NCBI GenBank assembly: GCA_963728205.1
Contig: CAVSIV010000006.1
Location: 830,831 to 894,830 of the forward strand
Source: an uncultured Chloroflexia bacterium
GTDB lineage: Bacteria > Chloroflexota > Dehalococcoidia > UBA2979
Length of the DNA stretch: 64,000 nt
Direction: 5' to 3'
Part shown: one piece after another, positions 7,760 through 61,662 of the stretch
How positions within the stretch are numbered: the first letter of the stretch is position 1
How the letters are laid out: each line of letters begins with the position of its first letter
The notes under the pieces: generated by a model
What the model saw: only the letters and a program-made list of their open reading frames with translations
What the model was told of the DNA's origin: nothing
The model's database searches: none
Translations under genes and position numbers: made by a program

Positions 7760-8878
7760 CTACGGGGCCACGGCGTCGGGCGGGACAGTACCAACCGCCC
7801 GCGTCGCCGAGGGCACCACCGTCGCGGGCGCCGTCGAACTCGATGCCGCGGTTCCTCTCCCGTTCGGGGTCCCCGACGGACTCGCCGCTGGGGTGAGAGC
7901 ATCGGTTGTGGCCGGTATGGCGGTCCCCGTCGCCTGTACCGTCGCCGTCACCGTGCTTGTCGGCGTTTCGGTGGTGTCGGCCGTCGGCGTCTCCGTCGCA
8001 GTTACCTCGGACGTCGGCGTCGCCGTCTCCGTCGCCTCGGGCGTCGCCGTCGCCGTCTCCGTCGCCACAGGCGTCCCGGCGTCCCCGTGCGACTCGAGGT
8101 AGCGCGCCGCGGTCACGACGCCCTGGTCGGCCGTCACCTGCGCGGCGCTCAGCGCACCCTCGGCGCCCGCCTCGGGCTTCGCCGTCTGCAGCACCTGCCG
8201 GCTCTGGTTCGCGGCGCGCGCGTACTGCGCGACGGTGCCGGGGTCGACGCGCTCGGGCTGCGCGGCGATCTGCTGCTGCACCGAGGCGTTGTCCTCGGTC
8301 ACGCGGCGGAGGAGGTCGGTCTGCACGGGCACGCCGCGCTGCGTGTTGCTCGCGATCTCGGCGAGCGTGGTCTGCAGCCGTGCGAGCTGCGCGTCGAGCG
8401 AGCGCGGGGTCTGGTTCTCGACGGTCGGGCCGGTCGCCAGCTGCGGCGTGCCGGAAAGGCCGCCGCCGGCGAAGGCGGTGAAGGTGATCGCCGCGGCGGC
8501 GGCCGCGGCGGCCATCGGCGCGAACACCGAGACGACGCGGGTGCGCAGGCGGCGCCGGCGCTCGGCCGCGAGCGACACGGGCGCGCGCTCCATGCGGTGC
8601 AGGATCGCGGCGCGCGAGCGGGCGCGGTAGGAGTCGAAGGCGGGGCCATCGGTGGCGTCGGCGAAGAGGTGCTGGAGGACGGCGGCGGTCTGGACGAGGC
8701 CGGCGAGCGCGGGGTCTTCGCGCGGATCGACGTCGGGCTCGCGACCGGACGCGAGCTCCTCGAGCGCCTCGTCCAGGCGCTGGGCCTCGGCCAGGTCGGC
8801 GGCGTCCCCGGTGAAGAGGGGGTCCCCCCGCCGGGTATCCCCGGCGTCGAAGGAGTGCAGCGGCTGGTCTGCCGACAT
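7760..8878 (-). CDS. anti-sigma-factor-like membrane protein
   Basis: 372 aa from ATG 8876-8878 with a single TM helix (VVSVFAPMAAAAAAAAITFTAFAGG) and a T/E/A/P-rich extracytoplasmic tail. It lies downstream of the ECF sigma gene on the same strand. No zf-HC2 motif was seen. Confidence 0.65.
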   Translation of the reverse strand: MSADQPLHSFDAGDTRRGDPLFTGDAADLAEAQRLDEALEELASGREPDVDPREDPALAGLVQTAAVLQHLFADATDGPAFDSYRARSRAAILHRMERAPVSLAAERRRRLRTRVVSVFAPMAAAAAAAAITFTAFAGGGLSGTPQLATGPTVENQTPRSLDAQLARLQTTLAEIASNTQRGVPVQTDLLRRVTEDNASVQQQIAAQPERVDPGTVAQYARAANQSRQVLQTAKPEAGAEGALSAAQVTADQGVVTAARYLESHGDAGTPVATETATATPEATETATPTSEVTATETPTADTTETPTSTVTATVQATGTAIPATTDALTPAASPSGTPNGRGTAASSSTAPATVVPSATRAVGTVPPDAVAP

Positions 8879-9112
8879 CTCCGACCCGTTCCGGGCCGCC
8901 CACGCGTGGGGCGGCCACACTGTGCCGGTGAGTCGCCGGGCGGCTTGCGCCGGCCGCGCGCCATCGGGGCTGGCGGAGCATCGTCGGTGGCGCCGTGCCG
9001 TGGGTTCGCCCTGCGGCGACTGGCCCCCGCCAGGCTCGGCGGTCCGCGATGATCCTCTCGTGGTCTGCGCGACCGGCGGGCGTTAGGCCCGGGGGTCGCC
9101 TGCTGGTGGCGT

Positions 9113-9330
9113 CAGCAGCGGGCGGTACGCCCGCTGTGCGCCTGTGTGCGGCGGGCCGTGGCCCGCTGTGCGCCTGGCAGCGGGCGGGACGCCCGCTGTG
9201 CGCCTGTGTGCGGCGGGCCGTGGCCCGCTGTGCGCCTGGCAGCGGGCGGGACGCCCGCTGTGCGCCTGGGCAGCGGGCCTACCGCCCGCTGTGCGCCTGG
9301 CAGCGGGCGATACGCCCGCTGTGCGCCTGG
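9113..9330. repeat. tandem array of seven hairpin units between the sigma and anti-sigma genes
   Basis: Units of 29-33 bp. Each is a hairpin, either CAGCGGGCG-NNN-CGCCCGCTG or GCGGGCC-GT-GGCCCGC, followed by TGCGCCTGG. The first four units form two 62-bp higher-order repeats. There are no spacers. Confidence 0.9.
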
Positions 9331-9356
9331 GTCGCGGACGGACGTCCGCGGCGTTC

Positions 9357-10232
9357 CTACTGGTCCGCGCTCCGCACCCAACTGGGCTCGGGGCGCGTGT
9401 CGCGGAGGATCTGCTTCAGGCGCTGCACGCCCTTGTGCTGCAGCACCTTGACGTTGCCCTGCTGCTTCCCGAGCGCCTCGGCCGTTTCCGCGACGGAGAG
9501 GCCGGCGCCGAATCGCAGGCGAATCACGTCGCGCTGCGCTTCGGGGAGCAGTTCGACCGCGTCAAAGACCTCCTCGATCGTCAACTGCGTCTCGGCGAGG
9601 TCCTGCGGGCCGCGGCGCTCGTCCGCGATCCAGTCCGGGACCTCGGCGCCCGGGTCGTCCTTCACCACGCGGCGATGGACGGTGGCCCGGCGGTGGAACG
9701 AGACGACGTGGTTGTGAGCGATGCGGAACAGCCAGGCCGCGAAGGGGCTGCGCTCCCCCGCGCCGATGTCCCGCCACTCGAACCCGTCGACCGCCCCCAG
9801 GACCTTGAGGAAGATCTCTTCCGCGAGGTCCTCCGCGTCCGTCTCGTTGCCGACGCGCGCCAGGCAGTAGCGATACAGCCTGGTGACGTACGCGTCGTAC
9901 AGGAGGCCTACCGCCTCCAGGTCTCCGTGAGCGGCACGCTGCACGTACTCGCGCTCGACGGCGACGGACAGCTGGTTCGGATTCGACGGCGCTGGTCTCG
10001 CGGGATCCCCCGTTCGTCGCGGGGAGTCGGCAGCGGGATCGGCGCCCTCGGCGTGTGGCGAGATGTCTGCCACCGGGCTTCCCTTCGCGCCGGCCCCCGC
10101 TGCGACCGGCCCCGGTGGGCCGTCCAGTGCATCGGGATCGCGGGACGGGCTCCCCGCACCGGCATGACCGGGGAGGTGCGCGTCCGCACGAGTATAGGTG
10201 GCCTGCGCCAAGGGGAGAGGTGTGTCGGACAT
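9357..10232 (-). CDS. ECF (sigma-70 family) RNA polymerase sigma factor
   Basis: 291 aa from ATG 10230-10232. Region 2 (LYRYCLARVGNETDAEDLAEEIFLKV, FAAWLFRIAHNHVVSFHRR) and region 4 (LPEAQRDVIRLRFGAGLSVAETAEALGKQQGNVKVLQHKGVQRLK) are present. It has a P/A/G-rich N-terminal extension of about 95 aa. Confidence 0.9.
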   Translation of the reverse strand: MSDTPLPLAQATYTRADAHLPGHAGAGSPSRDPDALDGPPGPVAAGAGAKGSPVADISPHAEGADPAADSPRRTGDPARPAPSNPNQLSVAVEREYVQRAAHGDLEAVGLLYDAYVTRLYRYCLARVGNETDAEDLAEEIFLKVLGAVDGFEWRDIGAGERSPFAAWLFRIAHNHVVSFHRRATVHRRVVKDDPGAEVPDWIADERRGPQDLAETQLTIEEVFDAVELLPEAQRDVIRLRFGAGLSVAETAEALGKQQGNVKVLQHKGVQRLKQILRDTRPEPSWVRSADQ

Positions 10233-10310
10233 CTCCCACCGCACTATCAACAACGGTACGGACCGTGACCGGGTTAACGGGGGGCGCAGGCGCGGGGGCC
10301 GCATGAGGTG

Positions 10311-10337
10311 TAACGAAGGCGGAGGGGGATTCGTTCC
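10311..10337 (-). promoter_or_regulatory. ECF-type promoter candidate upstream of the sigma gene (autoregulation)
   Basis: On the minus strand, GGAAC (10333-10337), spacer GAATCCCCCTCCGCCTT (17 nt), then CGTTA (10311-10315). It sits between the NYN stop codon and the sigma ATG. Confidence 0.5.
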
Positions 10338-10370
10338 GGGGCGGTTTGCATGGCGCGCGGTCACGCGCCT

Positions 10371-18460: not shown

Positions 18461-18805
18461 TCAGCGCGTCGCCGGCCCCGATTGCGGACGGCCTTCGTGG
18501 GCGATCTCCTGCTCGAGCAGGTGCAGTCGCAGCGCGTCCCAGAGCGCGCGCAGGCTGGCCGCGTCGTGCTCGCCGCCGGGCGCCCCGGCGGCGTCGCGCA
18601 GGGCGGCGGCGTCCTTCGCGAGCAACCCCGCCGTGGCGGACGGATGCACAATCAGCGGTCCGCGCCACACGGTGATGCGGCGGCAGGCACTGCAGATCGA
18701 CCAGCGGACGTCGGGTAAGGGACGGTCGGTGGAGAGCCACCACTGCTCGCCGTGCGTGCCGCAGCGCGGACAGGCGAACCAGTCACGCCGGGTGGTGCGC
18801 TCCAC
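18461..18805 (-). CDS. small zinc-ribbon hypothetical protein
   Basis: 114 aa with CPRCG ... CSAC cysteine pairs. Codon bias is consistent with the local GC3 level. Confidence 0.55.
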   Translation of the reverse strand: MERTTRRDWFACPRCGTHGEQWWLSTDRPLPDVRWSICSACRRITVWRGPLIVHPSATAGLLAKDAAALRDAAGAPGGEHDAASLRALWDALRLHLLEQEIAHEGRPQSGPATR

Positions 18806-18835
18806 GCGCAGCTCCTTCCCGGCCTGGAGTGTTCG

Positions 18836-18883
18836 GGGGGCGGTCCGCCTGACGGCCGGGCGGGACCCTGGCGGACCGCCCCC
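18836..18883. other. perfect 14-bp inverted repeat in a divergent intergenic region
   Basis: GGGGGCGGTCCGCC (18836-18849), a 20-nt loop, then GGCGGACCGCCCCC (18870-18883). It lies between the divergent starts at 18805 and 19121. Confidence 0.8.
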
Positions 18884-19120
18884 TATAGCGAACAGACCGA
18901 CGGCGCTCGCCGTTCTTACACTCGGTCGCGGCGAACTTTCCGAGAGCTTGAAGATTTAGCAAGGTTTTCCCCGCGGAACGTGGCTTCTCGGTCGAAATCG
19001 GGGTTCTCCCGACGTTGGGGCGGGCGGATACCCGCTATTTTTCCGGGGACGGTCGGGCGACCTTCAGGGGCTGGCTTTGGGCGCGCATGGACTCGCGTGC
19101 CCGGAACGCACCGGGACAAG

Positions 19121-21760
<2,640 letters not shown>

Positions 21761-23147: not shown

Positions 23148-23705
23148 TCAGGGCGCGTCGGCGGACCGGGCCGGCTCGGAGGGCCGCAGCGCTCCGCGCG
23201 TGCGTGGAGTGGTCTCGCGGTTCGGCGCCCGCCGCCGTGCTCGGCGTGCGCGAGCCGCGGTCTGGTCGACCCGCCCAAGGAACTCTCGCTCGCGGTGCTC
23301 CTCGTAGAGATTGACCGTCGTGGCCCCCCCGTCCGACGCGACATCCTCGGCGATGCGCTCGAGCTTCTGCTCCATCTGGAACTCGAACTGCTCGCGCTCC
23401 TCGGCGCTGGGAATCGCCGCCGGACCGGACTTCCGATAGGTCAGCTCGGGGTGCTCGCCGGGGAGCGCCGTGCCGGCGATCGGCGCGGACACCTCCTGCT
23501 CGAGATGCCAGTACGTCCCGCGATCGGGGATCCGCCGCGGCGAGCCCTCGCGGAAGACGAACGCCTGGAAATCGCGCGAGACGACCCGCTTCGCATCTTC
23601 GTCGCACGCCGGGCATGCGGCCGGCTCCGCTGCGCGGCGCGCGGATCGCGCGAGCGCCTCGAACACGGCGTCGCAGCCCTCGCAGTAGTACTCGTACAGC
23701 GGCAT
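23148..23705 (-). CDS. FmdB-family zinc-ribbon protein with a long C-terminal extension
   Basis: 185 aa with N-terminus MPLYEYYCEGCDAVFEAL ... CPACDE. Confidence 0.75.
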   Translation of the reverse strand: MPLYEYYCEGCDAVFEALARSARRAAEPAACPACDEDAKRVVSRDFQAFVFREGSPRRIPDRGTYWHLEQEVSAPIAGTALPGEHPELTYRKSGPAAIPSAEEREQFEFQMEQKLERIAEDVASDGGATTVNLYEEHREREFLGRVDQTAARARRARRRAPNRETTPRTRGALRPSEPARSADAP

Positions 23706-23727
23706 GGTGGGCGGCTCCTTCCGGGAC

Positions 23728-26172
23728 TCAGGCCGGTTCCGAGCTCACGACGCGCTCGGCGAACAGCGCGTCAATCGCGCGGGCGTCGTAACCGAGCTCT
23801 CCGAGCAGCGCGCGGGTGTGCTCGCCCGCGAGCACGCCCGGGCCGAGACGCAGCGCGCTCTCCGAGAAGTGGGTGAGCCCGCCATGGCGCAGGTAGGGGC
23901 CCCAGCGGGTGTGCTCGGCGGGTGACACGAACCCGTTCTCGCGGGCGTGGTCGCTCTCGAGGAAGAACTCCGCGGGCGTCGCGGCGTCCGCGCGGACGCA
24001 CGCCACGCCGGCTGTCGCGAGCACGCGCTCCCACTCGTCCGCCGGGCAGCCCGCGAAAGCGCCGGTGAGCGCCTCGACCAGATCGGCGTCGTGCCGGCGA
24101 CGCGCGTCCGCGTCGCGAAAGCGGGGATCCTCGGCGAGACCGCGATCTCCCAGGGCACGCGTCAGGGCGGTCCAGTCCGCGGGCTCGGGGCAGGCGAGGA
24201 AGAGCCAGGTGTCGTCGCGCGCGGGATACAGCCGGTAGAGGGCGTGCAGACCGCGCAAGCCCGCGTCGGGAGCGGGGCGCGGCGGCTTGCCCTCGTACCA
24301 GACGAAGTCGTCGCTGTTCGCGTAGGCGTTGGCGCTCATCATGTTGCACTGCACGTGCTGCCCGGTGCCCTGGGTCGCGCGGACGTACAGCGCGAGCAGC
24401 ACGGCGCTGGCGATGACGAGCGACGTGTTCGGGTCCGGGTTGACCTCGTTCGCTCGCATCAGCTGCCGCGCGGTCTCGCGCAGCTCTTCGACGTCGTCGG
24501 AGACACGCAAGGCCGCCGCCCCACCCGCCTGCATGTAGGCGCCGCCCAGGGATGCGCCGGGCACGGGGTGGGCGTTCGGCCGGTGCGCGTACGGCCCGTC
24601 GGAGCCGTACCCGGTCGCCGAGACGTACACGATGTCGGGGCGCACGGCGCGCGCCTGCTCGTACCCGATGCCGAGGCGCTCGGGGACGCCCGGGCGGAAG
24701 TTGTGCACGAGCACGTCGGCGCGCGCCATGAGCGCACGGGCGATCGCGCGACCGCGCGGGTCCTTGAGGTCGAGGCAGAGGCTCTCCTTGCTGGCGGTGG
24801 TCTTCGTCGCACCGACGCCGCTGAGCATGCCGCGCATCGGGTCCCCGTCGATGCTCTCGACCTTGATCACGCGTGCGCCGAGATCGCCGAGGATCGAGCA
24901 GGCGTAGGGCGTCGCGATGATCGTCGCGAACTCGAGAACCGTGATCCCGCGCAGGGGCGCCTCCCCGGGTGCGCGGAGCGGCGGCGTGTCCGGCGGGACG
25001 TGCTCCACGCGCGGTCGCCAGTTCGCGTCCTGGTGCTCGCCGGGATCGGGGATCGTGAGCGCGGGCCTGGCCGGGGTGCGCGACATGTGCGCGAGCGGGC
25101 CGATCTGCTGCATGCGGCCGAACCGGCGCGTCTGCACCTCGATCACGTCACCGTTGTGCACGAGTTGCGGGTGGGAGAGAGCCGACTGCGTGTCGCCGAA
25201 CCGCTCCGCCGCCACGTTCCCGTCGGCGATGAAGTCGGCCATCCAGTCGTCCGCCGGTCGCTCGCGCACCCGGCGCAGGATGCGGTCCCGCAGCTCCTCG
25301 CGCGCGGCCTCGGAGTAGGCGTTCGGCGGGACCTGGTAGCGCGAGTCTGCGTAGATCTCGTCGAGGCCGGCGACGCGGATGAAGGAGTGGAAGAGGTGCT
25401 CGACGAGGTTGCCGAGCTGGATCCACGTGCCGTCGGCGGCAAGCACCGGGTGGTACTGCAGGGTCGGCATCCGCCCGAACTGCTCGTTCGGATCCGTGGG
25501 GAATGCCTCGGGGCGGCTGCGACGGAGCTGGAGCGTGAGCAGGCCGCCGAGGTCGTACGGCATCATGCCCTGGAGCAGGCTCGTCTCGACGTGTTGCCCG
25601 CTGCCGGTCGACCGGCGGACGAGCAGCGCGGCGACGATGCCCTGCAGCGCCGCCTGGGCGGCGACGTGCTGCCCAACGGGCACGTACGCGTAGACGGGGC
25701 CCGGCCGGGAAAGCTGCCCGGCGAAGGTCATCATGCGCCCCGCCTTCGCCGCGACGATTCCCTCGTGTCCGCGGTACTCGGCGAGGGGGCCGTGCGCGCC
25801 GAAGCCGGTGATGGCGCACGAGATCAGCCGCGCGTTGAGCGCAGCCAGCGACTCGCGATCGACGCCGAGCCGGCGGGCCGACGACGGGCGGCCCGAGAAG
25901 ACCAGGACATCCGCGTCGGCGGCGAGCGCATGGAGGCGCTCCCGGCCGTCCGCGGCACCGAGATCCAGCACGAGGCTGCGCGTCCCGCGGAGCCACATCG
26001 GCGCCGCCGGCTGACGCCGCAGCGGTTCGCCGCCCGGCCGCTCGATCGTGAGGACGTCCGCGCCGAAGTCGGCGAGCACCATCCCGGCGACGGCCGCGGG
26101 TGGGCGCGGCGACACGTTGAGCACCCGGAGGCCGTCGAGCGCCGGAGCGACGGCCCCGTCGGCGGGGGTCAC
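23728..26172 (-). CDS. tandem-fused family III (CaiB/BaiF) CoA-transferase, two domains in one polypeptide
   Basis: 814 aa from GTG 26170-26172 (GTGA overlap with the permease stop). Domain 1 contains LDGLRVLNVS ... VLADFGADVLTIERPGG. Domain 2 contains LRGITVLEFATIIATPYACSILGDLGARVIKVE. Both have the full CoA-transferase III length. Confidence 0.85.
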   Translation of the reverse strand: MTPADGAVAPALDGLRVLNVSPRPPAAVAGMVLADFGADVLTIERPGGEPLRRQPAAPMWLRGTRSLVLDLGAADGRERLHALAADADVLVFSGRPSSARRLGVDRESLAALNARLISCAITGFGAHGPLAEYRGHEGIVAAKAGRMMTFAGQLSRPGPVYAYVPVGQHVAAQAALQGIVAALLVRRSTGSGQHVETSLLQGMMPYDLGGLLTLQLRRSRPEAFPTDPNEQFGRMPTLQYHPVLAADGTWIQLGNLVEHLFHSFIRVAGLDEIYADSRYQVPPNAYSEAAREELRDRILRRVRERPADDWMADFIADGNVAAERFGDTQSALSHPQLVHNGDVIEVQTRRFGRMQQIGPLAHMSRTPARPALTIPDPGEHQDANWRPRVEHVPPDTPPLRAPGEAPLRGITVLEFATIIATPYACSILGDLGARVIKVESIDGDPMRGMLSGVGATKTTASKESLCLDLKDPRGRAIARALMARADVLVHNFRPGVPERLGIGYEQARAVRPDIVYVSATGYGSDGPYAHRPNAHPVPGASLGGAYMQAGGAAALRVSDDVEELRETARQLMRANEVNPDPNTSLVIASAVLLALYVRATQGTGQHVQCNMMSANAYANSDDFVWYEGKPPRPAPDAGLRGLHALYRLYPARDDTWLFLACPEPADWTALTRALGDRGLAEDPRFRDADARRRHDADLVEALTGAFAGCPADEWERVLATAGVACVRADAATPAEFFLESDHARENGFVSPAEHTRWGPYLRHGGLTHFSESALRLGPGVLAGEHTRALLGELGYDARAIDALFAERVVSSEPA

Positions 26173-32070: not shown

Positions 32071-32189
32071 CACGGCAGCGGTTCGCCCACGACGCGTCAC
32101 CAGAGTCATCGCAGTTTCGTAACAGTTGCCCTGGTAGCTGAGACAACAGTCTCACGCACAGGTCACCGGTCAGGTCTGACCCTGCTCCG

Positions 32190-33488
32190 TTGCCGATTCT
32201 GCGTGCTTGCCCGGCGCCCACGTGTCCCATTACCGTCGAGCTTCGGCGGGGTCAGAGGGACGGCGATCCGGTGCACACCCGCCACTGGCACCTGAACGGT
32301 GCCTCGACTCGCGTTCTCATCGGTCTGTTCCTGCTGCTCGTCGCCCTCGTCGGGGGACGGCCAGCGACGGCATCGGCGCAGACCCCCGCCTGGGTCGACA
32401 CGGGCGGGGACTGCCTGCGCATGCGTGCCGAGCCCGGACTGCAGGGAGCGGACCTGACCTGCCTTCCCCACGGCACCGCGATCACGCTCCTCGCCGGCTC
32501 CGAGCAGCGAGATGGATTCACATGGCGCCAGGTCGAGTACCAGGCGCGGGTGGGGTGGGTCGCAGCGCCGTACATCACGACCCAGCCGCAGGATGTCCAG
32601 CCGCTCACCGAGCGCCCGCACGGGGCGCCTCCCGGGCTCCTCGAGCCCCCTGTCGGCGGGATGACCATGGGACTCGTGTCGGGTGCCGATCCGGCGGCGA
32701 TCATCGCCGCTCTCCCTTACCCGGTCGTGAGCATGTGGCACCTCGATATCGCCTCGCAGCAGCTGCTGCGCTTCGTCCCGGGCGCACCTCCGTTCGTCAA
32801 CACGCTCATGACGCTTGACCCCGGCGACGTCGTCTCGGTGACGCGGGCGGGAGCGATTGCCGCCGTGGGCCCCCCGCCCGAGGCCTCGCTGACCGTCGCA
32901 GGAACGCCAGACGTCCTGATGGTCCCCCCGGTCGGCGGCGTGACACAGGGGCTCTCCGGGACGACCGATCCGAAGTTCCTCGCTCAGGCACAGCCCTTCA
33001 CGGTGGAGAGCGTCTCGTACTTCGACGTGGGATCGCAGCAGTGGCTGGTATACGTGCCCGGCGCTCCGGATGCGGCAAACACATTGCGGCAAGGTCAGCT
33101 TCGAGTCGACAGCGTTGTTTCGGTCATGCGCGGCCCGGACGCGGCACCCGTCCCGGGGTCCGCAACCGCCACTCGCTTCGAGACAACGATCACGTATTAC
33201 TACTGCGTTCCCGGTTCGAATCAGGCCGGGATCGGTGACGTCGGTGGGTACTGTGGTGCGATGGCAAACGGCGACCCCGTGCACGCGGGTGCTGCCGCAT
33301 GTGCGCCGCAGAACCTGGGCCAACGGTTCACCATCGAGGGGGATCCGACGGGCCGGACGTACACCTGTGCCGACACCGGTGGCTCGGTCCTCCAGGACCA
33401 CCGGGACGTCTGGTTCATGAACAGCGATGACGGGTACGCGTGGTGGGGCCGGGTCGGGCCCACGGCCATCATCGACATCGTGAACTAG
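32190..33488 (+). CDS. secreted cell-wall protein: SH3b-like domain, two copies of the PGAP-FVN module, C-terminal 3D (DPBB) domain
   Basis: 432 aa; the start is uncertain and an in-frame GTG downstream is possible. Signal peptide LIGLFLLLVALVGGRPATASA. SH3b-like CLRMRAEPG ... WRQVEYQARVGWVAAPYI. Two module copies (FVPGAPPFVNTL and YVPGAPDAANTL). The 3D-like end is GAMANGDPVHAGAAACA ... YTCADTGGSVLQDHRDVWF. Confidence 0.75.
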   Translation: MPILRACPAPTCPITVELRRGQRDGDPVHTRHWHLNGASTRVLIGLFLLLVALVGGRPATASAQTPAWVDTGGDCLRMRAEPGLQGADLTCLPHGTAITLLAGSEQRDGFTWRQVEYQARVGWVAAPYITTQPQDVQPLTERPHGAPPGLLEPPVGGMTMGLVSGADPAAIIAALPYPVVSMWHLDIASQQLLRFVPGAPPFVNTLMTLDPGDVVSVTRAGAIAAVGPPPEASLTVAGTPDVLMVPPVGGVTQGLSGTTDPKFLAQAQPFTVESVSYFDVGSQQWLVYVPGAPDAANTLRQGQLRVDSVVSVMRGPDAAPVPGSATATRFETTITYYYCVPGSNQAGIGDVGGYCGAMANGDPVHAGAAACAPQNLGQRFTIEGDPTGRTYTCADTGGSVLQDHRDVWFMNSDDGYAWWGRVGPTAIIDIVN

Positions 33489-33516
33489 CGTTCATCGCCA
33501 GGCGGCTCTCGCAGGG

Positions 33517-39438: not shown

Positions 39439-41214
39439 TTACCGGAGCGCGACGAAGGCGCCGACCACACCCGACGCCACCCCCGAGACCCGCGCCCGTA
39501 CCCCGATCTGCCCGCCCACCGCGGACGGGGCCTCGCGCGGCGGCGGCTGCGCGCGCCGCTGCCGCGTCGTCGCAGCTGCTCGGTGCGGCGACGACGTCGT
39601 CGATCCCGTCCCACGCGGTTGGGGCGGCGAGGAGGGGGGCGACGAGGGATCCGCGCCGCGCGAGCCCGCGGAGGCGCGCCGCTGCGCCGCGGGGCGCGTG
39701 GCTTCCGAGGCGTTCGAGCCGCTCGAGGCGATCGAGCCGGTCGGCTTCGCTGCGCCCGCTGCGTGTCCGTGAGCGGCGGCTGCCTGCGGCGCGGGGGACG
39801 CGCCGGACCGGCTCGCGGAAGCGCCGCGCTCGCTCGCCGCGATGGCGCGGGAGCGGCCCGTGGCCGGCGAGCCGGCGGCCACGGGAGGCGCCCCGCTCTG
39901 CGGCGCGGGCGACACGGCGTGCGCGTACCGTCCTGCCGGGACCGACGTCCGGCTCGCCGTCGCGGGCGTCGCGGGGCTGGAGCGCCCTGCCGGCACCGCC
40001 GCGACGTCGCGGTCGGGCGTTGTGCGCGGGGCGTCGGAACCGCGCGCGCCCGGTGCCGACGGCGGCCACCAGGCCACCGGAGAGGCAGGCGATCCGAAGG
40101 AGCCGGGCCCCCGCACCGCCGGCGCAGCCTCGCCTCCAGGCGGTCCGGAGCGGGCAAGGCCGCCCGCCGTCACGGCCGCGCCGGCCGCGCCGGCCGCGCC
40201 GGCCGCGCCGGCCGCGGGCGTCGCTTCGTGGACGCGCGGGTGGCGCGGGCGTTCGCCGACCCACTCGCGACGCGCGGGACCGCCCAGCGCGACGAGCGTG
40301 AGGACGGCGAACGCCAGCATCCCGCCGAGCCCGGCCGCGTGCTTCGCGAACGAGCCGGCTCCGCGGGCGACGGCCGGCCGTCGCAACGCGGCATCGCGCC
40401 CCGACCGGCGCAGCGCGCGCAGCAGTCCGCCGGGCCGGCGGATCGCGCCGAGCAGCGCGCTCGCCGCGAGGCCCGTGCGGCGGCGGTCCTCCGGGGCGCG
40501 CATCAACGACAGCCAGCCGTCGCACGCCGCGCACTCCGCGGCGTGGCGCGCGAGCGTCGTGGACTCGCGCTCCGAGAGCGTGCCCGCCGCGAGCTCCGAG
40601 AGTCGGTGGAGCGCCTGCGTGCAGCCCACCTCGATTCCCTCGGCCCGGAGGTACGTGTCCGCGAGACGTCGGCGCGCGCGTGAGGTCAGCGTCTCCGCGG
40701 CGCCGCGCGAGACGCCGAGCGTCCGGCCAATCGCCTCGTAGGAGCGCCCCTCCAGCTCGCGCATCACGAGCGCGCGGCGCGAGCGCTCGGGCAGCAGGGA
40801 GAGCGCGACCCAGACCCGAGCGCGCTCGTCGAGCGAGAGCACCCGCTCGCCGGGGTCCGAGGCATGGATGTCGCGCGGCTGGTGCCGGGGTTGCCCGCCG
40901 TCGTCGCGATCGAGCGACACGAGCTGCGGACGGCGGCGGCGCTTGCGCAGGAAGTCGAACGCTGCGTTCAACGAGAGCCGGGACAGCCAGGATCGGAAGC
41001 GATCGGGATGCTCGAGGCCGTGCAGCGACAGCGCGACGAGGAGCCAGACCTCCTGGGCGACGTCGGCGGCGTCGTCGGGATTGCGCAGGGGACGCAGCAG
41101 GAGGTGTCGCACGTACTCGTCGTACTCGTCGACGAGTCGCTCGAAGGCGCCGGGCTCGCCATCCCGCGCGCGACGCACCCACGCACCCACATCGAACTCC
41201 ACGGGGTCGTGCAT
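39439..41214 (-). CDS. second ECF sigma factor fused to a zf-HC2 anti-sigma domain, TM helix and low-complexity tail (ECF52-like)
   Basis: 591 aa from ATG 41212-41214. Region 2 (LLLRPLRNPDDAADVAQEVWLLV) and region 4 (LPERSRRALVMRELEGRSYEAIGRTLGVSRGAAETLTSRARRRL) are followed by HAAECAACDGWLSLM, TM helix GGMLAFAVLTLVALGG, a P/A/S/G-rich tail, and a terminal hydrophobic stretch GVASGVVGAFVALR. Confidence 0.85.
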   Translation of the reverse strand: MHDPVEFDVGAWVRRARDGEPGAFERLVDEYDEYVRHLLLRPLRNPDDAADVAQEVWLLVALSLHGLEHPDRFRSWLSRLSLNAAFDFLRKRRRRPQLVSLDRDDGGQPRHQPRDIHASDPGERVLSLDERARVWVALSLLPERSRRALVMRELEGRSYEAIGRTLGVSRGAAETLTSRARRRLADTYLRAEGIEVGCTQALHRLSELAAGTLSERESTTLARHAAECAACDGWLSLMRAPEDRRRTGLAASALLGAIRRPGGLLRALRRSGRDAALRRPAVARGAGSFAKHAAGLGGMLAFAVLTLVALGGPARREWVGERPRHPRVHEATPAAGAAGAAGAAGAAVTAGGLARSGPPGGEAAPAVRGPGSFGSPASPVAWWPPSAPGARGSDAPRTTPDRDVAAVPAGRSSPATPATASRTSVPAGRYAHAVSPAPQSGAPPVAAGSPATGRSRAIAASERGASASRSGASPAPQAAAAHGHAAGAAKPTGSIASSGSNASEATRPAAQRRASAGSRGADPSSPPSSPPQPRGTGSTTSSPHRAAATTRQRRAQPPPREAPSAVGGQIGVRARVSGVASGVVGAFVALR

Positions 41215-41577
41215 CGCGCGCTGCTCTCTTCCCCCGGCAGCGCGGGAGGCTAGCACGCCCGCCCGGCCCCCGCGAGACCGCGGTGGGAGGTCGGTCGACG
41301 CGGCGGGACGCGCGTGAATCCGCGTGCCGGCGGGATGCGAGGGAACTGCAAGGCGCCGACCGGCGATGCGTGTAAGTCGGCCGAGCGACTTCACGTCTCA
41401 TTAAGCAGAGCGAATCGGCGCGGTTCGATCCGCTCGTCGCACCCCGGTCCCCGAGACGACGGCAACGACGTGGAGCCGGCGCGTGTTTCGCGCGCTCGGA
41501 GGGTTTCGCGTTCCCGACGCCGCCGGTGATCAAGCGGGGTGGGCAGCAAGCAGTGGGTCGGTGGAAAGGAGGTGAGG

Positions 41578-58289: not shown

Positions 58290-58922
58290 CTACCGGCCCG
58301 CGACGAACGCGACCGTCTCGGCGATCGCCTCCGCCAGGTTCTCGGCCTCGGTGCGGCCCGACGCCTTGCGCGGCTTCAGCGAGTGGTCGCCGTCGGGCAG
58401 CCAGTGCACGCGAATGGCGGGCGACAACTCGTAGCCCGCGACTTCCCCGCGCGCGCCCATCGGGTCGCGCTCACCCTGCAGGATGAGCGCCGGCGTGCGG
58501 AGGTGCTCGAGGTGAGCCGTGCGCAGCACGCGCGGCCGGCCGGCGGGATGGAATGGGTAGCCGAGGCACACGAGACCGTCGACGCCGGCCTCGTCGGCGA
58601 CCATCGACGCGATGCGCCCGCCCATCGACTTCCCACCGATCACGAGCACTCCGCCGGCGGCGGGGCGCGCCGCGGCGATGGCCGCGCGATAGGCGTCGAG
58701 CAGCACCGGCTGACGGTCGGGCGCCCCGCCACGGCCGGTCGTCCGGCGCGCCGCCATGTACGGGAACTCGAAGCGCACGACCCGGATGCCGGCCTCCCCC
58801 ACGCCGCGCGCGACCGTCGTCATGAAGGGGTGGTCCATCGGCGCGCCGGCGCCGTGCGCGCAGAGGAAGAGGCGCGGCGCGTCCGCGGGGCCGTCGACGA
58901 GGAACCGGGGCGCGTCCGCCAT
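58290..58922 (-). CDS. alpha/beta hydrolase (COG3571/KANL3-like)
   Basis: 210 aa. LCAHGAGAPMDHPFM, the nucleophile elbow GGKSMGG, and the C-terminal DGDHSL. Its start overlaps the glycerate kinase stop (TGATG). Confidence 0.85.
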   Translation of the reverse strand: MADAPRFLVDGPADAPRLFLCAHGAGAPMDHPFMTTVARGVGEAGIRVVRFEFPYMAARRTTGRGGAPDRQPVLLDAYRAAIAAARPAAGGVLVIGGKSMGGRIASMVADEAGVDGLVCLGYPFHPAGRPRVLRTAHLEHLRTPALILQGERDPMGARGEVAGYELSPAIRVHWLPDGDHSLKPRKASGRTEAENLAEAIAETVAFVAGR

Positions 58923-60079
58923 CAGGTCACCTCCGCCGCGTGCCGCGCGACCAGGCGCGCCGCCGCCGCCGCCACGAGCTCCGGCGCGCGGCGCATCGCC
59001 TCCGCCTCGTCGAGCGCGCCGTCCGCGTCGACCAGGGACTCCGTATCGACGATGTCCGCCGGCACGCCGTCGACGCGCCCGGCCACGGCCATGCACGGCC
59101 GGCCGGCGGCGTGCGCGATCGCCGCGACGCTCGCGACCGTCTTGCCGAAGCCCGTCTGCGCGTCGAGCCGGCCCTCGCCCGTCACGACGAGGTCGGCGGC
59201 GACGACGGCGGCCCGCAGCCCGACGGCGTCGCCGACGAGCGCCGCGCCCGACTCGATCGACGCGCTCCCGCCGGCGGCGCGCGCCGCGGCGAGCAGCCCC
59301 ACCGGCAGCCCGCCACCCGCGCCCGCGCCCGCCAGCCCGCGCACGTCGAGGTCGAGCGTCGCCGCGAGCACCTCGGCCCATCGCGCGAGCGCCTGCTCGA
59401 GCGCCGGCGCCATCCAGTCGGCGACGCCCTTCTGCGGGCCGTAGATCGCGGTCGCGCCCGTCGCGCCGAGCAGCGGGTTGGTGACGTCGACCGCGACGCG
59501 CAGCGCGACGTCGCGCAGCGCCGGCTCGACGCCGCTCGCGTCGACCCGCGCGAGCCGCACGAGCGCCAGGCCGCCCGGCGGCAGCGGGTCGTCGTTGGCG
59601 TCGAGCAGCCGCAGCCCGAGCGCGCGCGCCGCGCCGGAGCCGCCGTCGTTCGTCCCGGTCCCGCCGACGCCGACGACGATCCGTCGCGCGCCGCGCCGCA
59701 GCGCGTCGCGCAGCTGGTCGCCCACGCCCTCGGTGGAGGCGAGCGCCGGGCGGCGCTCGGCCGCCGGCAGCAGGACGAGCCCCGCGGTCGCCGCCGCCTC
59801 GATCACGGCCGCCGGCGGGTCGCCGGCGAGGAGCGCGTACGCGGCGTCCTCGACCGGCGCGCCGAGCGGGCCGCGCGCCGCCGCGCGCACGAGCGTCGCG
59901 CCCGACGCCTGCGCCACGATCGCGGCGGTGCCGGGCCCACCATCGGCGAGCGGCAGCTCGCGCACGTCGGCGCCGGGCAGCGCGCGACGCACCCCGTCGG
60001 CGATGGCGCGCGCGGCCGCGACCGCCGTCAGCGACCCTTTGAACTCCTGCGGACAGACGAGGACGCGCGGCGCGGACAT
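58922..60079 (-). CDS. glycerate kinase
   Basis: 385 aa. VLVCPQEFKGSLTA, LPLADGGPGT, VVGVGGTGTNDGGSGAA and VVTGEGRLDAQTGFGK are glycerate kinase family blocks. Confidence 0.92.
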   Translation of the reverse strand: MSAPRVLVCPQEFKGSLTAVAAARAIADGVRRALPGADVRELPLADGGPGTAAIVAQASGATLVRAAARGPLGAPVEDAAYALLAGDPPAAVIEAAATAGLVLLPAAERRPALASTEGVGDQLRDALRRGARRIVVGVGGTGTNDGGSGAARALGLRLLDANDDPLPPGGLALVRLARVDASGVEPALRDVALRVAVDVTNPLLGATGATAIYGPQKGVADWMAPALEQALARWAEVLAATLDLDVRGLAGAGAGGGLPVGLLAAARAAGGSASIESGAALVGDAVGLRAAVVAADLVVTGEGRLDAQTGFGKTVASVAAIAHAAGRPCMAVAGRVDGVPADIVDTESLVDADGALDEAEAMRRAPELVAAAAARLVARHAAEVT

Positions 60080-60092
60080 CCGCCGGCCGCGC

Positions 60093-60254
60093 TCAGATGC
60101 CCCAGCGCAGCCGGATGACCGCGGCGATCAGGATCGCGAGCACGTAGGCGTAGCCGACGACGCGCAGCTTGCGTCCGAAGCGCCCGACCCACCTCGGACG
60201 GAACAGGTAGTAATAGGCACCGAACACGATGCCGAGCAGGATCAGCGGGAGCAT
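60093..60254 (-). CDS. small membrane protein (53 aa, two hydrophobic helices), below the ORF-track size cut-off
   Basis: ATG 60252-60254 is preceded by GGAGGGG. It reads MLPLILLGIVFGAYYYLFRPRWVGRFGRKLRVVGYAYVLAILIAAVIRLRWGI. High GC3. Confidence 0.6.
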   Translation of the reverse strand: MLPLILLGIVFGAYYYLFRPRWVGRFGRKLRVVGYAYVLAILIAAVIRLRWGI

Positions 60255-60296
60255 GGACCCCTCCACGCCCCATCGTAAACGACCGCCGCCGCAGGG

Positions 60297-60325
60297 TTGA
60301 CTCGAACACCCGTTCTGATTATCGT
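60297..60325 (+). promoter_or_regulatory. sigma-70-like promoter TTGACT-N17-TATCGT
   Basis: -35 at 60297-60302 and -10 at 60320-60325, with an exact 17-nt spacer, about 45 nt upstream of the ATG at 60371. Confidence 0.6.
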
Positions 60326-60351
60326 GAGCACCTACTCGAACGCCCGTTCGG
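60302..60351. promoter_or_regulatory. two LexA (Cheo/SOS) box candidates
   Basis: TCGAACACCCGTTCTG (60302-60317, inside the promoter spacer) and TCGAACGCCCGTTCGG (60336-60351). Compare the Gram-positive/actinobacterial consensus TCGAAC-N4-GTTCGA. They sit within a 21-nt direct repeat spaced 34 nt apart. Confidence 0.6.
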
Positions 60352-60370
60352 ATTCCACGGGAGCCGTGCC

Positions 60371-60577
60371 ATGCCGCTCATTGCACCCCTTCGCCCCGCC
60401 GCCCCTCCGGTGGCGCCCGCAGTTGCGACGCCCGCGCCGAGCGCCGTCGCGCCCGCCGCGCCGCGGTTGCGTCGCATGCTCGCGGTCGGCCCGCGTTGCC
60501 CGGACTGCGGCGGGCCGCTGGCGTACGGCGAAGGCTGCCGGCTCTGCCCGGTCTGCGGTCACTCCTCGTGCGCCTGA
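60371..60577 (+). CDS. small Pro/Ala-rich zinc-ribbon protein
   Basis: 68 aa with CPDCG ... CRLCPVCG. It lies downstream of the promoter and LexA-box candidates. Confidence 0.6.
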   Translation: MPLIAPLRPAAPPVAPAVATPAPSAVAPAAPRLRRMLAVGPRCPDCGGPLAYGEGCRLCPVCGHSSCA

Positions 60578-60581
60578 TCGG

Positions 60582-61217
60582 CTAGCGCACGCCGAGCAGC
60601 GCGGGCAGCTCCTCGAGCGACGCGATTCGTGCGTCGACCGCGTGGGGCAGACCGAAGAACCCATCGCCGCGGTCGAGCCAGACCGCCGCCATGCCCGCGC
60701 CGCGCGCGCCGACGACGTCGTGCTCGGGGTTGTCGCCGACGTAGAGCGCCGTCTCCGGGCGCCCACCGACGGCCTCGAGCGCGAGCGCGAAGATCGCCGG
60801 GTCGGGCTTGCGCAGGTCGACCTCCTCGGAGACAACGACCGCGTCGACCCGCGTCGCGATCCCGAGCGCGTCCAGCTTCCGGTGCTGGTCGCGGGCGAGG
60901 CCGTTGCTGATGACCGCGAGGCGCAGTCGGCCGGCCAGCCGCTCGAGCGCCGGCAGCGCGTCCGGGTAGAGCCGTGCGCGGTCGACCGAGATCGCGATGT
61001 AGCGATCGGCGATCGCCTCGGCGGCATGCGCATGCCCGGCGCTGCGATCCGCGACGAGGCGGCGGAAGCCTTCGCGGACGAAGTCGTCGCTCCACTCACC
61101 GCCGCCGGCGCGCACCTGCGCGTCGTGCATGTAGCGGCGCACGTAGTCGTCGTACACGAGCCGGCTGTTGCCGAGCCGCGCCAGCGCCGGCGCGATCTCG
61201 AGCAGCGACGGCCACAC
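60582..61217 (-). CDS. HAD-superfamily hydrolase; conserved motif I lies upstream of the first canonical start codon
   Basis: The ORF-track frame starts at GTG 61217, but the same frame continues upstream as FAYVETVCLDLDGTLVDTLSGWHAGFAA (DLDGT at 61260-61274). There is no ATG, GTG or TTG in any frame between that motif and the upstream gene stop at 61330. Motifs II-IV (VISNG, K, GDNPEHDV) are intact. Confidence 0.75.
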   Translation of the reverse strand: MWPSLLEIAPALARLGNSRLVYDDYVRRYMHDAQVRAGGGEWSDDFVREGFRRLVADRSAGHAHAAEAIADRYIAISVDRARLYPDALPALERLAGRLRLAVISNGLARDQHRKLDALGIATRVDAVVVSEEVDLRKPDPAIFALALEAVGGRPETALYVGDNPEHDVVGARGAGMAAVWLDRGDGFFGLPHAVDARIASLEELPALLGVR

Positions 61218-61329: not shown

Positions 61330-61662
61330 CTAGTCCTCGTCGTCTTGGTCGTCCTCGTCTTCGCCGTCTTCGTCGTCCTCGAGGTCGTCCTCCGCGAAGA
61401 CGCCCACGCGCTCGCCGCGCCACACCGTCACCACGAAGTCCTCGCGGTACGGGTCCGCGGTCGTGACGATGCGGTCGTCGATCTCGGCGATCAGGTCCTC
61501 GACGCCCTCGTCGTCGACGCTCGCGTCGACCGCGAGCGTCGCGAACGCGACGGACGACGTGAAGTGCACGTCCACCCGGCCGATCGGCGCGCCGCCGTCC
61601 TCGATCACCCACTGCTCGGAATACGGCGTCCGCGCTTCGCGCTCGAACCGGTAGTCCGCCAT
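61330..61662 (-). CDS. small acidic hypothetical protein with a poly-D/E tail
   Basis: 110 aa from ATG 61660-61662. It ends FAEDDLEDDEDGEDEDDQDDED. Confidence 0.6.
   Translation of the reverse strand: MADYRFEREARTPYSEQWVIEDGGAPIGRVDVHFTSSVAFATLAVDASVDDEGVEDLIAEIDDRIVTTADPYREDFVVTVWRGERVGVFAEDDLEDDEDGEDEDDQDDED

Follow-up and report, generated by a model that had tools for sequence, protein, structure and literature searches.

Gene organization of the locus

The DNA analyzed here is a stretch of 64,000 nucleotides from an uncultured Chloroflexota bacterium (GenBank contig CAVSIV010000006.1; called the window below, GC content 70-78%), and this report concerns two very small genes within it, one for a zinc-ribbon protein and one for a membrane protein, which diverge from a 116 nt intergenic region (60255-60370) that carries a promoter and two palindromes of the type bound by LexA, the repressor of the SOS response to DNA damage. 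A preliminary description of the same DNA had proposed such tandem boxes, and the intergenic region, the 68 amino acid (aa) protein with its CPDCG...CPVCG motifs and the 53 aa membrane open reading frame (ORF) are all found in the sequence as it gave them. The features are as follows.

58922-60079, minus strand: glycerate kinase gene, 13 nt from the membrane ORF and in the same orientation
60093..60254, minus strand: ORF for a 53 aa membrane protein with two hydrophobic helices, with GGAGG upstream, divergent from the zinc-ribbon gene
60272..60277, minus strand: TACGAT, a -10-like hexamer, putative separate promoter of a membrane-gene/glycerate kinase operon
60297..60302, plus strand: TTGACT, predicted -35 hexamer of the zinc-ribbon gene (promoter scan and conservation)
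60302..60317 (core GAAC-N4-GTTC at 60304-60315), no strand assigned: LexA-type box 1, TCGAACACCCGTTCTG, filling the -35/-10 spacer
60320..60325, plus strand: TATCGT, predicted -10 hexamer (promoter scan; TAnnnT-type hexamers follow box 1 in orthologues)
60336..60351 (core at 60338-60349), no strand assigned: LexA-type box 2, TCGAACGCCCGTTCGG, at about +5 to +20 of the inferred transcript
60359..60363, plus strand: GGGAG, ribosome binding site of the zinc-ribbon gene, 7 nt ahead of the ATG, read from the sequence
60371..60577, plus strand: gene for the 68 aa zinc-ribbon protein, with a disordered Pro/Ala-rich N-terminus, an RLRR motif and a C-terminal six-cysteine zinc ribbon
60497..60571, plus strand: six-cysteine module C43-x2-C-x9-C-x2-C-x2-C-x4-C67, homologous to the extreme C-terminus of NrdJ, the class II ribonucleotide reductase

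Both small ORFs are, judged from their sequences, genuine genes. Comparison of the 25 codons of the cysteine module in the window with those of a related locus (L002 in the numbering used for loci below) gives 11 synonymous and 0 nonsynonymous changes, which argues for strong purifying selection and for the reality of the zinc-ribbon gene. A 24 nt inverted repeat (79% complementary; 60534-60557 / 60586-60609) surrounds the stop codons of the convergent zinc-ribbon and haloacid dehalogenase (HAD)-type hydrolase genes and may act as a terminator in both directions, but it lacks a T-run and the terminator scan did not report it.

The promoter and its two boxes

The promoter and transcription start of the zinc-ribbon gene are predicted from sequence (plus strand: GGGTTGACTCGAACACCCGTTCTGATTATCGTGAGCACCTACTCGAACGCCCGTTCGGATTCCACGGGAGCCGTGCCATG). 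TTGACT and TATCGT are 17 nt apart, and this pair is the sole sigma-70-like match that the promoter scan returned between 59900 and 60800, where shuffled sequence had 0.0 matches on average. Box 1 sits in the spacer and differs at two positions from the sequence TCGAAC-N4-GTTCGA, box 2 differs from it at one, and the two are 34 nt apart within a 21 nt direct repeat (60300-60320 / 60334-60354) of 90% identity; the promoter scan and motif count thus bear out the hexamers, the position of both boxes, the 10/12 and 11/12 matches and the repeat reported in the preliminary description. Counts of the motif in the window are less telling for a relaxed pattern than for the exact core: a loose 16-mer pattern has eight matches against 3.2 expected, which is not striking alone, and of the exact core GAAC-N4-GTTC the 64-kb window holds three copies against 0.57 expected, two of them being boxes 1 and 2. 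With a matrix trained on this lineage (see below) the two boxes are the top-scoring sites of the window, at 19.4 bits (box 1) and 14.7 bits (box 2); the third-ranked site reaches 12.4 bits and falls within a coding sequence. The third exact core (GAACTAGCGTTC, 33482-33493) was rejected as an operator. It overlaps the stop codon of the ORF at 32142-33488, and it is probably a chance occurrence since it spans that stop codon between convergent genes.

Conservation of the promoter-box arrangement

Sixteen homologues of the 68 aa protein were found; an exact look-up gave no identical sequence on record. In a scan of one genome per species, loci were returned only from Chloroflexota, Dehalococcoidia, Chloroflexia and Thermoflexus metagenome-assembled genomes (MAGs), apart from an Eisenbacteria MAG, where the match was an NrdJ gene, and some false relatives resembling transposases, and the loci nearest to the window come from Chloroflexota, Dehalococcoidia and Thermoflexus MAGs. 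The boxes had been described earlier as Gram-positive or actinobacterial in type. The type of box is indeed shared with those bacteria, but the homologous loci come from Chloroflexota groups, so that the actinobacterial framing is wrong and an actinobacterial origin was rejected; the organism is a high-GC Chloroflexota member, and the family box has the consensus (T)AGAAC-N4-GTTCT(A), of which the TCGAAC flanks in the window are a local variant.

The footprint was read from 28 distinct loci that encode the family, taken from genome MAGs, from Logan, JGI and ENA contigs and from loci reached through the membrane protein; several of these are closely related, so that the independent lineages number nearer 12-15. 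A TTGAC element, a box in the spacer and a second box precede the zinc-ribbon gene in 25 of the 28, and two further loci have a single box only. TTGAC is kept at the -35 position in 23 of 25 aligned loci, plus L042 and L046; box 1 starts 5-11 nt past it in orthologous loci, that is, in the promoter spacer, and the second box follows 31-36 nt beyond box 1 in 21 of 23 aligned loci (most commonly 33-34 nt). The arrangement is kept although the proteins are only 41-55% identical and the GC content of the loci ranges from 0.63 to 0.76; the remaining intergenic DNA, unlike the boxes, cannot be aligned across loci. By this comparison the promoter-box arrangement is conserved phylum-wide in Chloroflexota, which points to a hitherto undescribed DNA-damage-induced gene.

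Two observations on the wider set of loci may be added. Several have a third, weaker LexA-like box (e.g., AAGAAATTTTGTTCTA) 30-40 nt upstream of the -35 element (L018 9912-9927; L021 8696-8711; L024 6876-6891; L042 768-783). In the low-GC loci L043-L045 (GC 0.37-0.39) a stand-alone 47 aa family member (P0032) adjoins genes for a ParA-like protein and a Penicillinase_R-type repressor.

The same box lies upstream of recA

The scoring matrix was trained solely on sites upstream of zinc-ribbon genes and was then run, with a threshold of at least 17 bits, over all loci and the window, about 378 kb in all. It returned 40 sites, against 0-2 in shuffled sequence. Only six of its matches are out of sample; one is an extra box at a zinc-ribbon gene (L024), and the other five lie upstream of recA, in all five of the loci that carry a recA gene identified by tblastn (L020, L022, L024, L025 and L026). 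Since five of the six out-of-sample matches fall upstream of recA, the assignment of the boxes as LexA/SOS operators is well supported. In three of the five recA promoters (L024, L025 and L026) the layout is TTGACA-box-TAnnnT, as in the L024 example TTGACAGATCGTACATTCGTTCTAAACT; in L020 and L022 TAATTT comes after the box and TTGACA is not seen. The preliminary description had set recA and lexA of the window's own genome as its check; made on recA of related Chloroflexota, the check is passed, and the view of the palindromes as LexA operators on a real promoter is supported by these five recA genes together with the 25 of 28 zinc-ribbon loci.

LexA of Firmicutes and Actinobacteria is well known to recognize GAAC-N4-GTTC (PMC3323433). 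The boxes described here share this core with Gram-positive-type LexA operators (the Cheo or SOS box of B. subtilis and M. tuberculosis), and in both cases the operator overlaps the promoter; the motif is likewise common to the window boxes and the recA promoters of the same phylum. The same motif is reportedly also that of a Chloroflexi member, Dehalococcoides ethenogenes, as Fernández de Henestrosa et al. are said to have described in J Bacteriol in 2002. The Chloroflexota boxes differ from the Gram-positive operators in having flanks of (T)AGAAC...GTTCT(A) rather than TCGAAC...GTTCGA, in a 3' half-site that extends into the -10 element and in their target, an uncharacterised small protein. 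Two boxes on one promoter are also found at the E. coli lexA, recN and ydjM genes.

It is therefore very probable, on these comparisons, that the zinc-ribbon gene is under SOS (LexA) promoter control. The control could work as follows. A sigma-70-type promoter, TTGACT-17-TATCGT, would drive the 68 aa gene, with one LexA dimer sitting in the -35/-10 spacer and a second at about +5 to +20. LexA on both boxes would stop RNA polymerase binding as well as promoter escape and so keep the gene tightly off; the presence of two operators suggests tight repression. Upon DNA damage, RecA filaments would bring about LexA self-cleavage and the gene would be turned on.

In the Chloroflexia-type loci L020, L022 and L024-L026 the zinc-ribbon gene lies at about position 10000 (about 7000 in L024) with recA 2.7-4.7 kb downstream on the same strand; the gene order is a short (about 40-45 aa) zinc ribbon, a membrane ORF, yggS, proC, yggT, DUF167, recA and recX, and this proximity to recA may be meaningful. 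In L022 the divergent neighbor (8850-9728, minus strand) is not the membrane/glycerate kinase pair but an ATP-dependent DNA ligase (PF01068 and PF04679), a repair gene about 190 nt from the boxes.

The zinc-ribbon protein resembles the C-terminal tail of NrdJ

The preliminary description overlooked the homology of the zinc ribbon to the tail of class II ribonucleotide reductases. The six cysteines (C43, C46, C56, C59, C62 and C67 of 68 residues) stand among 21 columns that are invariant in the 16 homologues, and the residues invariant in the clade include R32, G40, R42, C43-P-D-C-G-G-P-L, G-E-G-C56, C59-P, C62-G, S65 and C67. AlphaFold2 predicts a zinc-ribbon-like beta-hairpin for residues 41-68 with confidence (pLDDT of about 87) and a disordered N-terminus (55-61). 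The last 28 residues match positions 732-759 of the 759 positions of NCBIfam NF006417 (B12-dependent ribonucleotide reductase) with an E value of 5.7e-7. The relationship is reciprocal: a profile built from the small proteins only, run against 1.8 billion representatives, gave 447 matches at E <=0.001 (these are clusters at 50% identity and include NrdJ C-termini), many of them stand-alone proteins of 35-90 aa; in others, of 500-1600 aa, the match is to the final residues of the chain. These longer proteins are NrdJ, as those tested carry Ribonuc_red_lgC and TSCPD domains. In tblastn comparisons NrdJ tails and small proteins are 55-67% identical over 28-30 aa, and both have the spacing C-x2-C-x9-C-x2-C-x2-C-x4/5-C; the NrdJ of L019, for example, ends in CPECDGPLVHGEGCRSCPSCGLAMC. 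Structure-based and PDB searches added little, since a PDB sequence search gave only marginal CxxC matches such as MetRS (E >0.1) and a Foldseek search of the model against the PDB gave only generic zinc ribbons (E >0.1), which is uninformative.

In NrdJ this tail has a role in zinc binding and in electron transfer into the active site (PMC5704485). The spacing of Cys-920/923/933/936/939/945 of the S. nassauensis enzyme NrdJd is matched by the window protein; Loderer et al. (PMC5704485) found that all six are needed for turnover with a non-penetrating reductant, and proposed that four of them bind zinc and that the third and sixth form a redox pair. The same work showed that electrons can pass between NrdJ subunits (PMC5704485). 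From this homology the 68 aa product is a free-standing homologue of the six-cysteine tail of NrdJ. It shares with the terminal module of the NrdJ cysteine-rich domain (CRD) both the cysteine spacing and a non-cysteine signature, and the P. aeruginosa NrdJb is similarly encoded apart from its catalytic domain (PMC5704485). On the other hand, the CRD has 150-220 residues, of which the window protein covers the last 25-30 only, with no TSCPD domain and no adjacent nrdJ gene; it also has its own disordered RLRR arm and an SOS-type operator, and part of its family has lost the redox pair. As the rest of the CRD is missing and no nrdJ lies nearby, the protein is not itself an NrdJ or an NrdJb subunit.

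The best explanation of the locus as a whole is that its promoter and SOS operator serve a small gene, in a high-GC Chloroflexota genome, for an NrdJ-tail-like zinc ribbon, and on the sequence comparisons above this explanation is likely to be correct. Several points weigh against it. On the regulatory side, the recA evidence is drawn from other Chloroflexota classes than that of the window, lexA was not found in any of the loci by tblastn with the E. coli and B. subtilis LexA proteins, and the low-GC family member of L043-L045 has no GAAC-N4-GTTC box upstream. In addition, Pfam searches of about 40 window ORFs showed no SOS or repair genes in the window. With regard to the protein, there is no nrdJ gene in the window or in any Chloroflexota locus, the homologous module on which its proposed function is based has only 25-30 residues, and members of the Chloroflexia-type subfamily (L020-L026) often lack the third cysteine, the sixth or both. 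Finally, a separately expressed CRD (residues 715-947) failed to restore the activity of truncated NrdJd in vitro (PMC5704485).

What the zinc-ribbon protein may do

The reading favored here, a tentative one drawn from the homology, is that the protein, once induced, would target NrdJ. It would either serve as a tail free to diffuse or vie with the tail that NrdJ itself carries, and in this way tune the supply of deoxynucleoside triphosphates (dNTPs) during repair. A more specific and rather doubtful version is that the damage-induced copy of the tail docks on NrdJ in trans, where it would feed electrons into the enzyme or would compete with its own tail and alter its oligomeric state. A redox-shuttle role is not universal in any case, because the proposed NrdJ redox pair is often incomplete or missing in the Chloroflexia-type subfamily.

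A protein under LexA control that has nothing to do with ribonucleotide reductase is a real possibility, though it falls somewhat short of an even chance. The product would then be a small zinc ribbon of basic character with DNA, RNA, RecA, LexA or the divisome as its binding partner and would serve as an SOS modulator or checkpoint protein, and its likeness to NrdJ would reflect shared zinc-knuckle ancestry only. Only the stand-alone proteins have the conserved basic patch, which reads RLRR or, in the short subfamily, RRRVIQRP, and where the putative redox cysteines have been lost from part of the family the four zinc ligands stay. The absence of nrdJ nearby, the location of the gene 2.7-4.7 kb upstream of recA-recX in five loci and the generic zinc ribbons returned by the fold search, which include binders of RNA polymerase and of the ribosome, also speak for such a role. 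Against it, the clade of the window keeps all six cysteines together with the signature of the NrdJ tail (P-D/E-C-G, EGC and CG-aromatic-S-x-C), and such conservation exceeds what a mere zinc scaffold would need.

If the protein does act on ribonucleotide reductase (RNR), the yeast proteins Sml1, Spd1 and Hug1 offer a functional analogy, but only that, as they too are small disordered proteins that link a checkpoint to RNR at the interface of tail and active site. Sml1 competes with the C-terminal tail of R1, according to work cited in PMC5704485 (its reference 27). Unlike the zinc-ribbon protein, which would be induced, Sml1 is removed after damage; the two are not homologous and belong with different RNR classes.

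The divergent membrane gene and glycerate kinase

The 53 aa membrane protein has no Pfam or NCBIfam match and no LysM or other domain, and a word-index search found only the protein itself and one close relative. Its family follows the pattern …RPR…VGYAYVAAILISA..RL.FGWG; the pattern scan from the membrane side used a narrower alignment (A3), since the broad one (A2) was too diverse. The membrane gene always directly precedes the glycerate kinase gene, reads in the same direction and is 13 nt away from it or overlaps it; in the window clade a TACGAT, TAGCAT or TACGCT element is kept 23-62 nt ahead of the membrane ORF. It thus appears, from these sequence features, to form an operon with glycerate kinase under a promoter of its own.

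Could the boxes serve both genes? In such a bidirectional SOS unit LexA would repress the two divergent genes together, and the membrane protein would be the effector, for example a division inhibitor like SidA, YneA, ChiZ or DivS. The divergent pairing is certainly widely kept, as it occurs in 16 loci and a search from the membrane protein found the zinc-ribbon gene close by in 6 of 6 informative loci, and in the window the inferred start of the membrane gene places box 1 at about -36 to -51, where a bound LexA could overlap the -35 region. The boxes, however, do not follow the membrane gene. In L036 and L037 an inserted gene separates the pair, and TTGACT-box-box remains directly ahead of the zinc-ribbon gene while the membrane gene retains TACGAT with no box nearby; L020 and L024-L026 likewise have a membrane gene that is not close to the boxes. 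Conversely, loci without the membrane gene still have the boxes (L011, L016-L018, L022, L029, L042 and L046), and where both occur TTGAC lies anywhere between 26 and about 300 nt from the membrane ORF. The boxes are assigned to the zinc-ribbon gene because they stay with it when the pair is separated or the membrane gene is missing. The membrane protein was therefore rejected as a conserved LexA target, its gene probably lies outside the LexA unit, and its attachment to a housekeeping glycerate kinase gene and its lack of a LysM or other domain further speak against the bidirectional unit, which is unlikely. In the window itself there may be some co-repression of the membrane gene, though not as a conserved feature.

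The preliminary description had considered either small gene a candidate SOS effector and had compared the membrane protein to the division inhibitors YneA, DivS, ChiZ and SosA. The first suggestion stands for the zinc-ribbon gene, a conserved target, and not for the membrane gene; the division-inhibitor analogy finds no support, because only the zinc-ribbon gene is a conserved target. There is a general likeness, in that the SOS division inhibitors (YneA, ChiZ, DivS, SosA, SidA and DidA) are also small proteins encoded beside or under LexA boxes and the membrane neighbor is, like them, a small bitopic or polytopic protein, but the conserved target here is a cytoplasmic zinc ribbon, and there is no shared domain or sequence similarity.

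Glycerate kinase is a conserved divergent neighbor of the zinc-ribbon gene phylum-wide, with or without the membrane gene between them (the window and L002, L008, L012-L016, L020, L024-L026 and L029). A conserved 38 aa ORF (MAEILVAVLITGVLFISDPDRLQRVLDRIREFSAWLAE) with one hydrophobic helix and no Pfam match shares the strand of the zinc-ribbon gene and closely precedes its promoter in most of seven loci (L016 9759-9866; L018 8014-8127; L020 9712-9825; L021 8413-8526; L024 6756-6869; L025 9645-9758; L026 9761-9874); in L018 it is about 1.8 kb upstream, and it is absent from the window.

Other regulators and chance

It is quite improbable that some regulator besides LexA recognizes the palindromes, whether a repressor specific to the lineage, a paralogue of LexA or, by autoregulation, the zinc-ribbon protein itself. 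That a basic zinc-ribbon protein always adjoins the sites and that lexA was not among the genes of the loci would suit this idea, but the motif is the canonical Gram-positive-type LexA box (PMC3323433), it stands at recA in five of five loci and otherwise only at zinc-ribbon genes in the roughly 378 kb scanned, and LexA repression typically has this geometry of an operator inside the promoter. That the boxes arose by coincidence, or by neutral duplication of 21 nt within the locus, can be dismissed; the enrichment of the loose 16-mer in the window, only some 2.5-fold, might be cited for it, but it is refuted by the footprint (proteins 41-55% identical, GC about 0.63-0.76, diverged flanking intergenic DNA) and by the 40 matrix matches against 0-2 in shuffles.

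Other features of the window

Three frames of the window contain sigma-70/ECF (extracytoplasmic function)-type sigma factor domains (regions 2 and 4): 9360-10370 (minus strand), 18719-21757 (plus strand) and 39442-41397 (minus strand). Two of them extend for several hundred further residues that match nothing in Pfam; all three frames run from stop to stop, so that the gene lengths are uncertain. A 198 aa frame at 23151-23744 (minus strand), flanked by an acyl-CoA dehydrogenase gene and a large CoA-transferase family III frame, has an N-terminal Zn_ribbon_8 domain (PF09723) that is unrelated to the NrdJ-tail module. Closer to the locus, 61333-61662 (minus strand) encodes an acidic protein of about 110 aa, conserved but without a Pfam match; it has equivalents of 110-126 aa in L001, L002 and L008, and its gene lies between proA (aldehyde dehydrogenase family) and the HAD hydrolase gene in all close relatives. 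Rfam and tRNA scans of the window gave no matches.

Significance

The zinc-ribbon gene should be a new, phylum-wide member of the SOS regulon, in which the cis element is canonical and the gene family undescribed. Searches of the papers available for LexA with zinc ribbons or LexA with nrdJ found nothing relevant, and a paper on the Streptomyces LexA regulon mentions neither nrd nor zinc-ribbon genes. Genes this small are routinely overlooked or left unnamed in annotation, and yet in the loci examined this one carries the operator as consistently as recA does. The SOS regulon of Chloroflexota is essentially uncharted, and the analysis supplies a lineage-specific LexA matrix and a setting for the box, within the promoter spacer. 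The zinc-ribbon protein, clearly a derivative of the NrdJ tail that is essential for catalysis, could also give a handle on the unknown physiological reductant of the CRD-type NrdJ enzymes (PMC5704485). If it acts on NrdJ, it would represent a new coupling of DNA-damage signaling to dNTP supply; LexA would then directly control dNTP synthesis through a small effector, a bacterial counterpart of the Sml1/Spd1 logic achieved by means of a detached enzyme tail.

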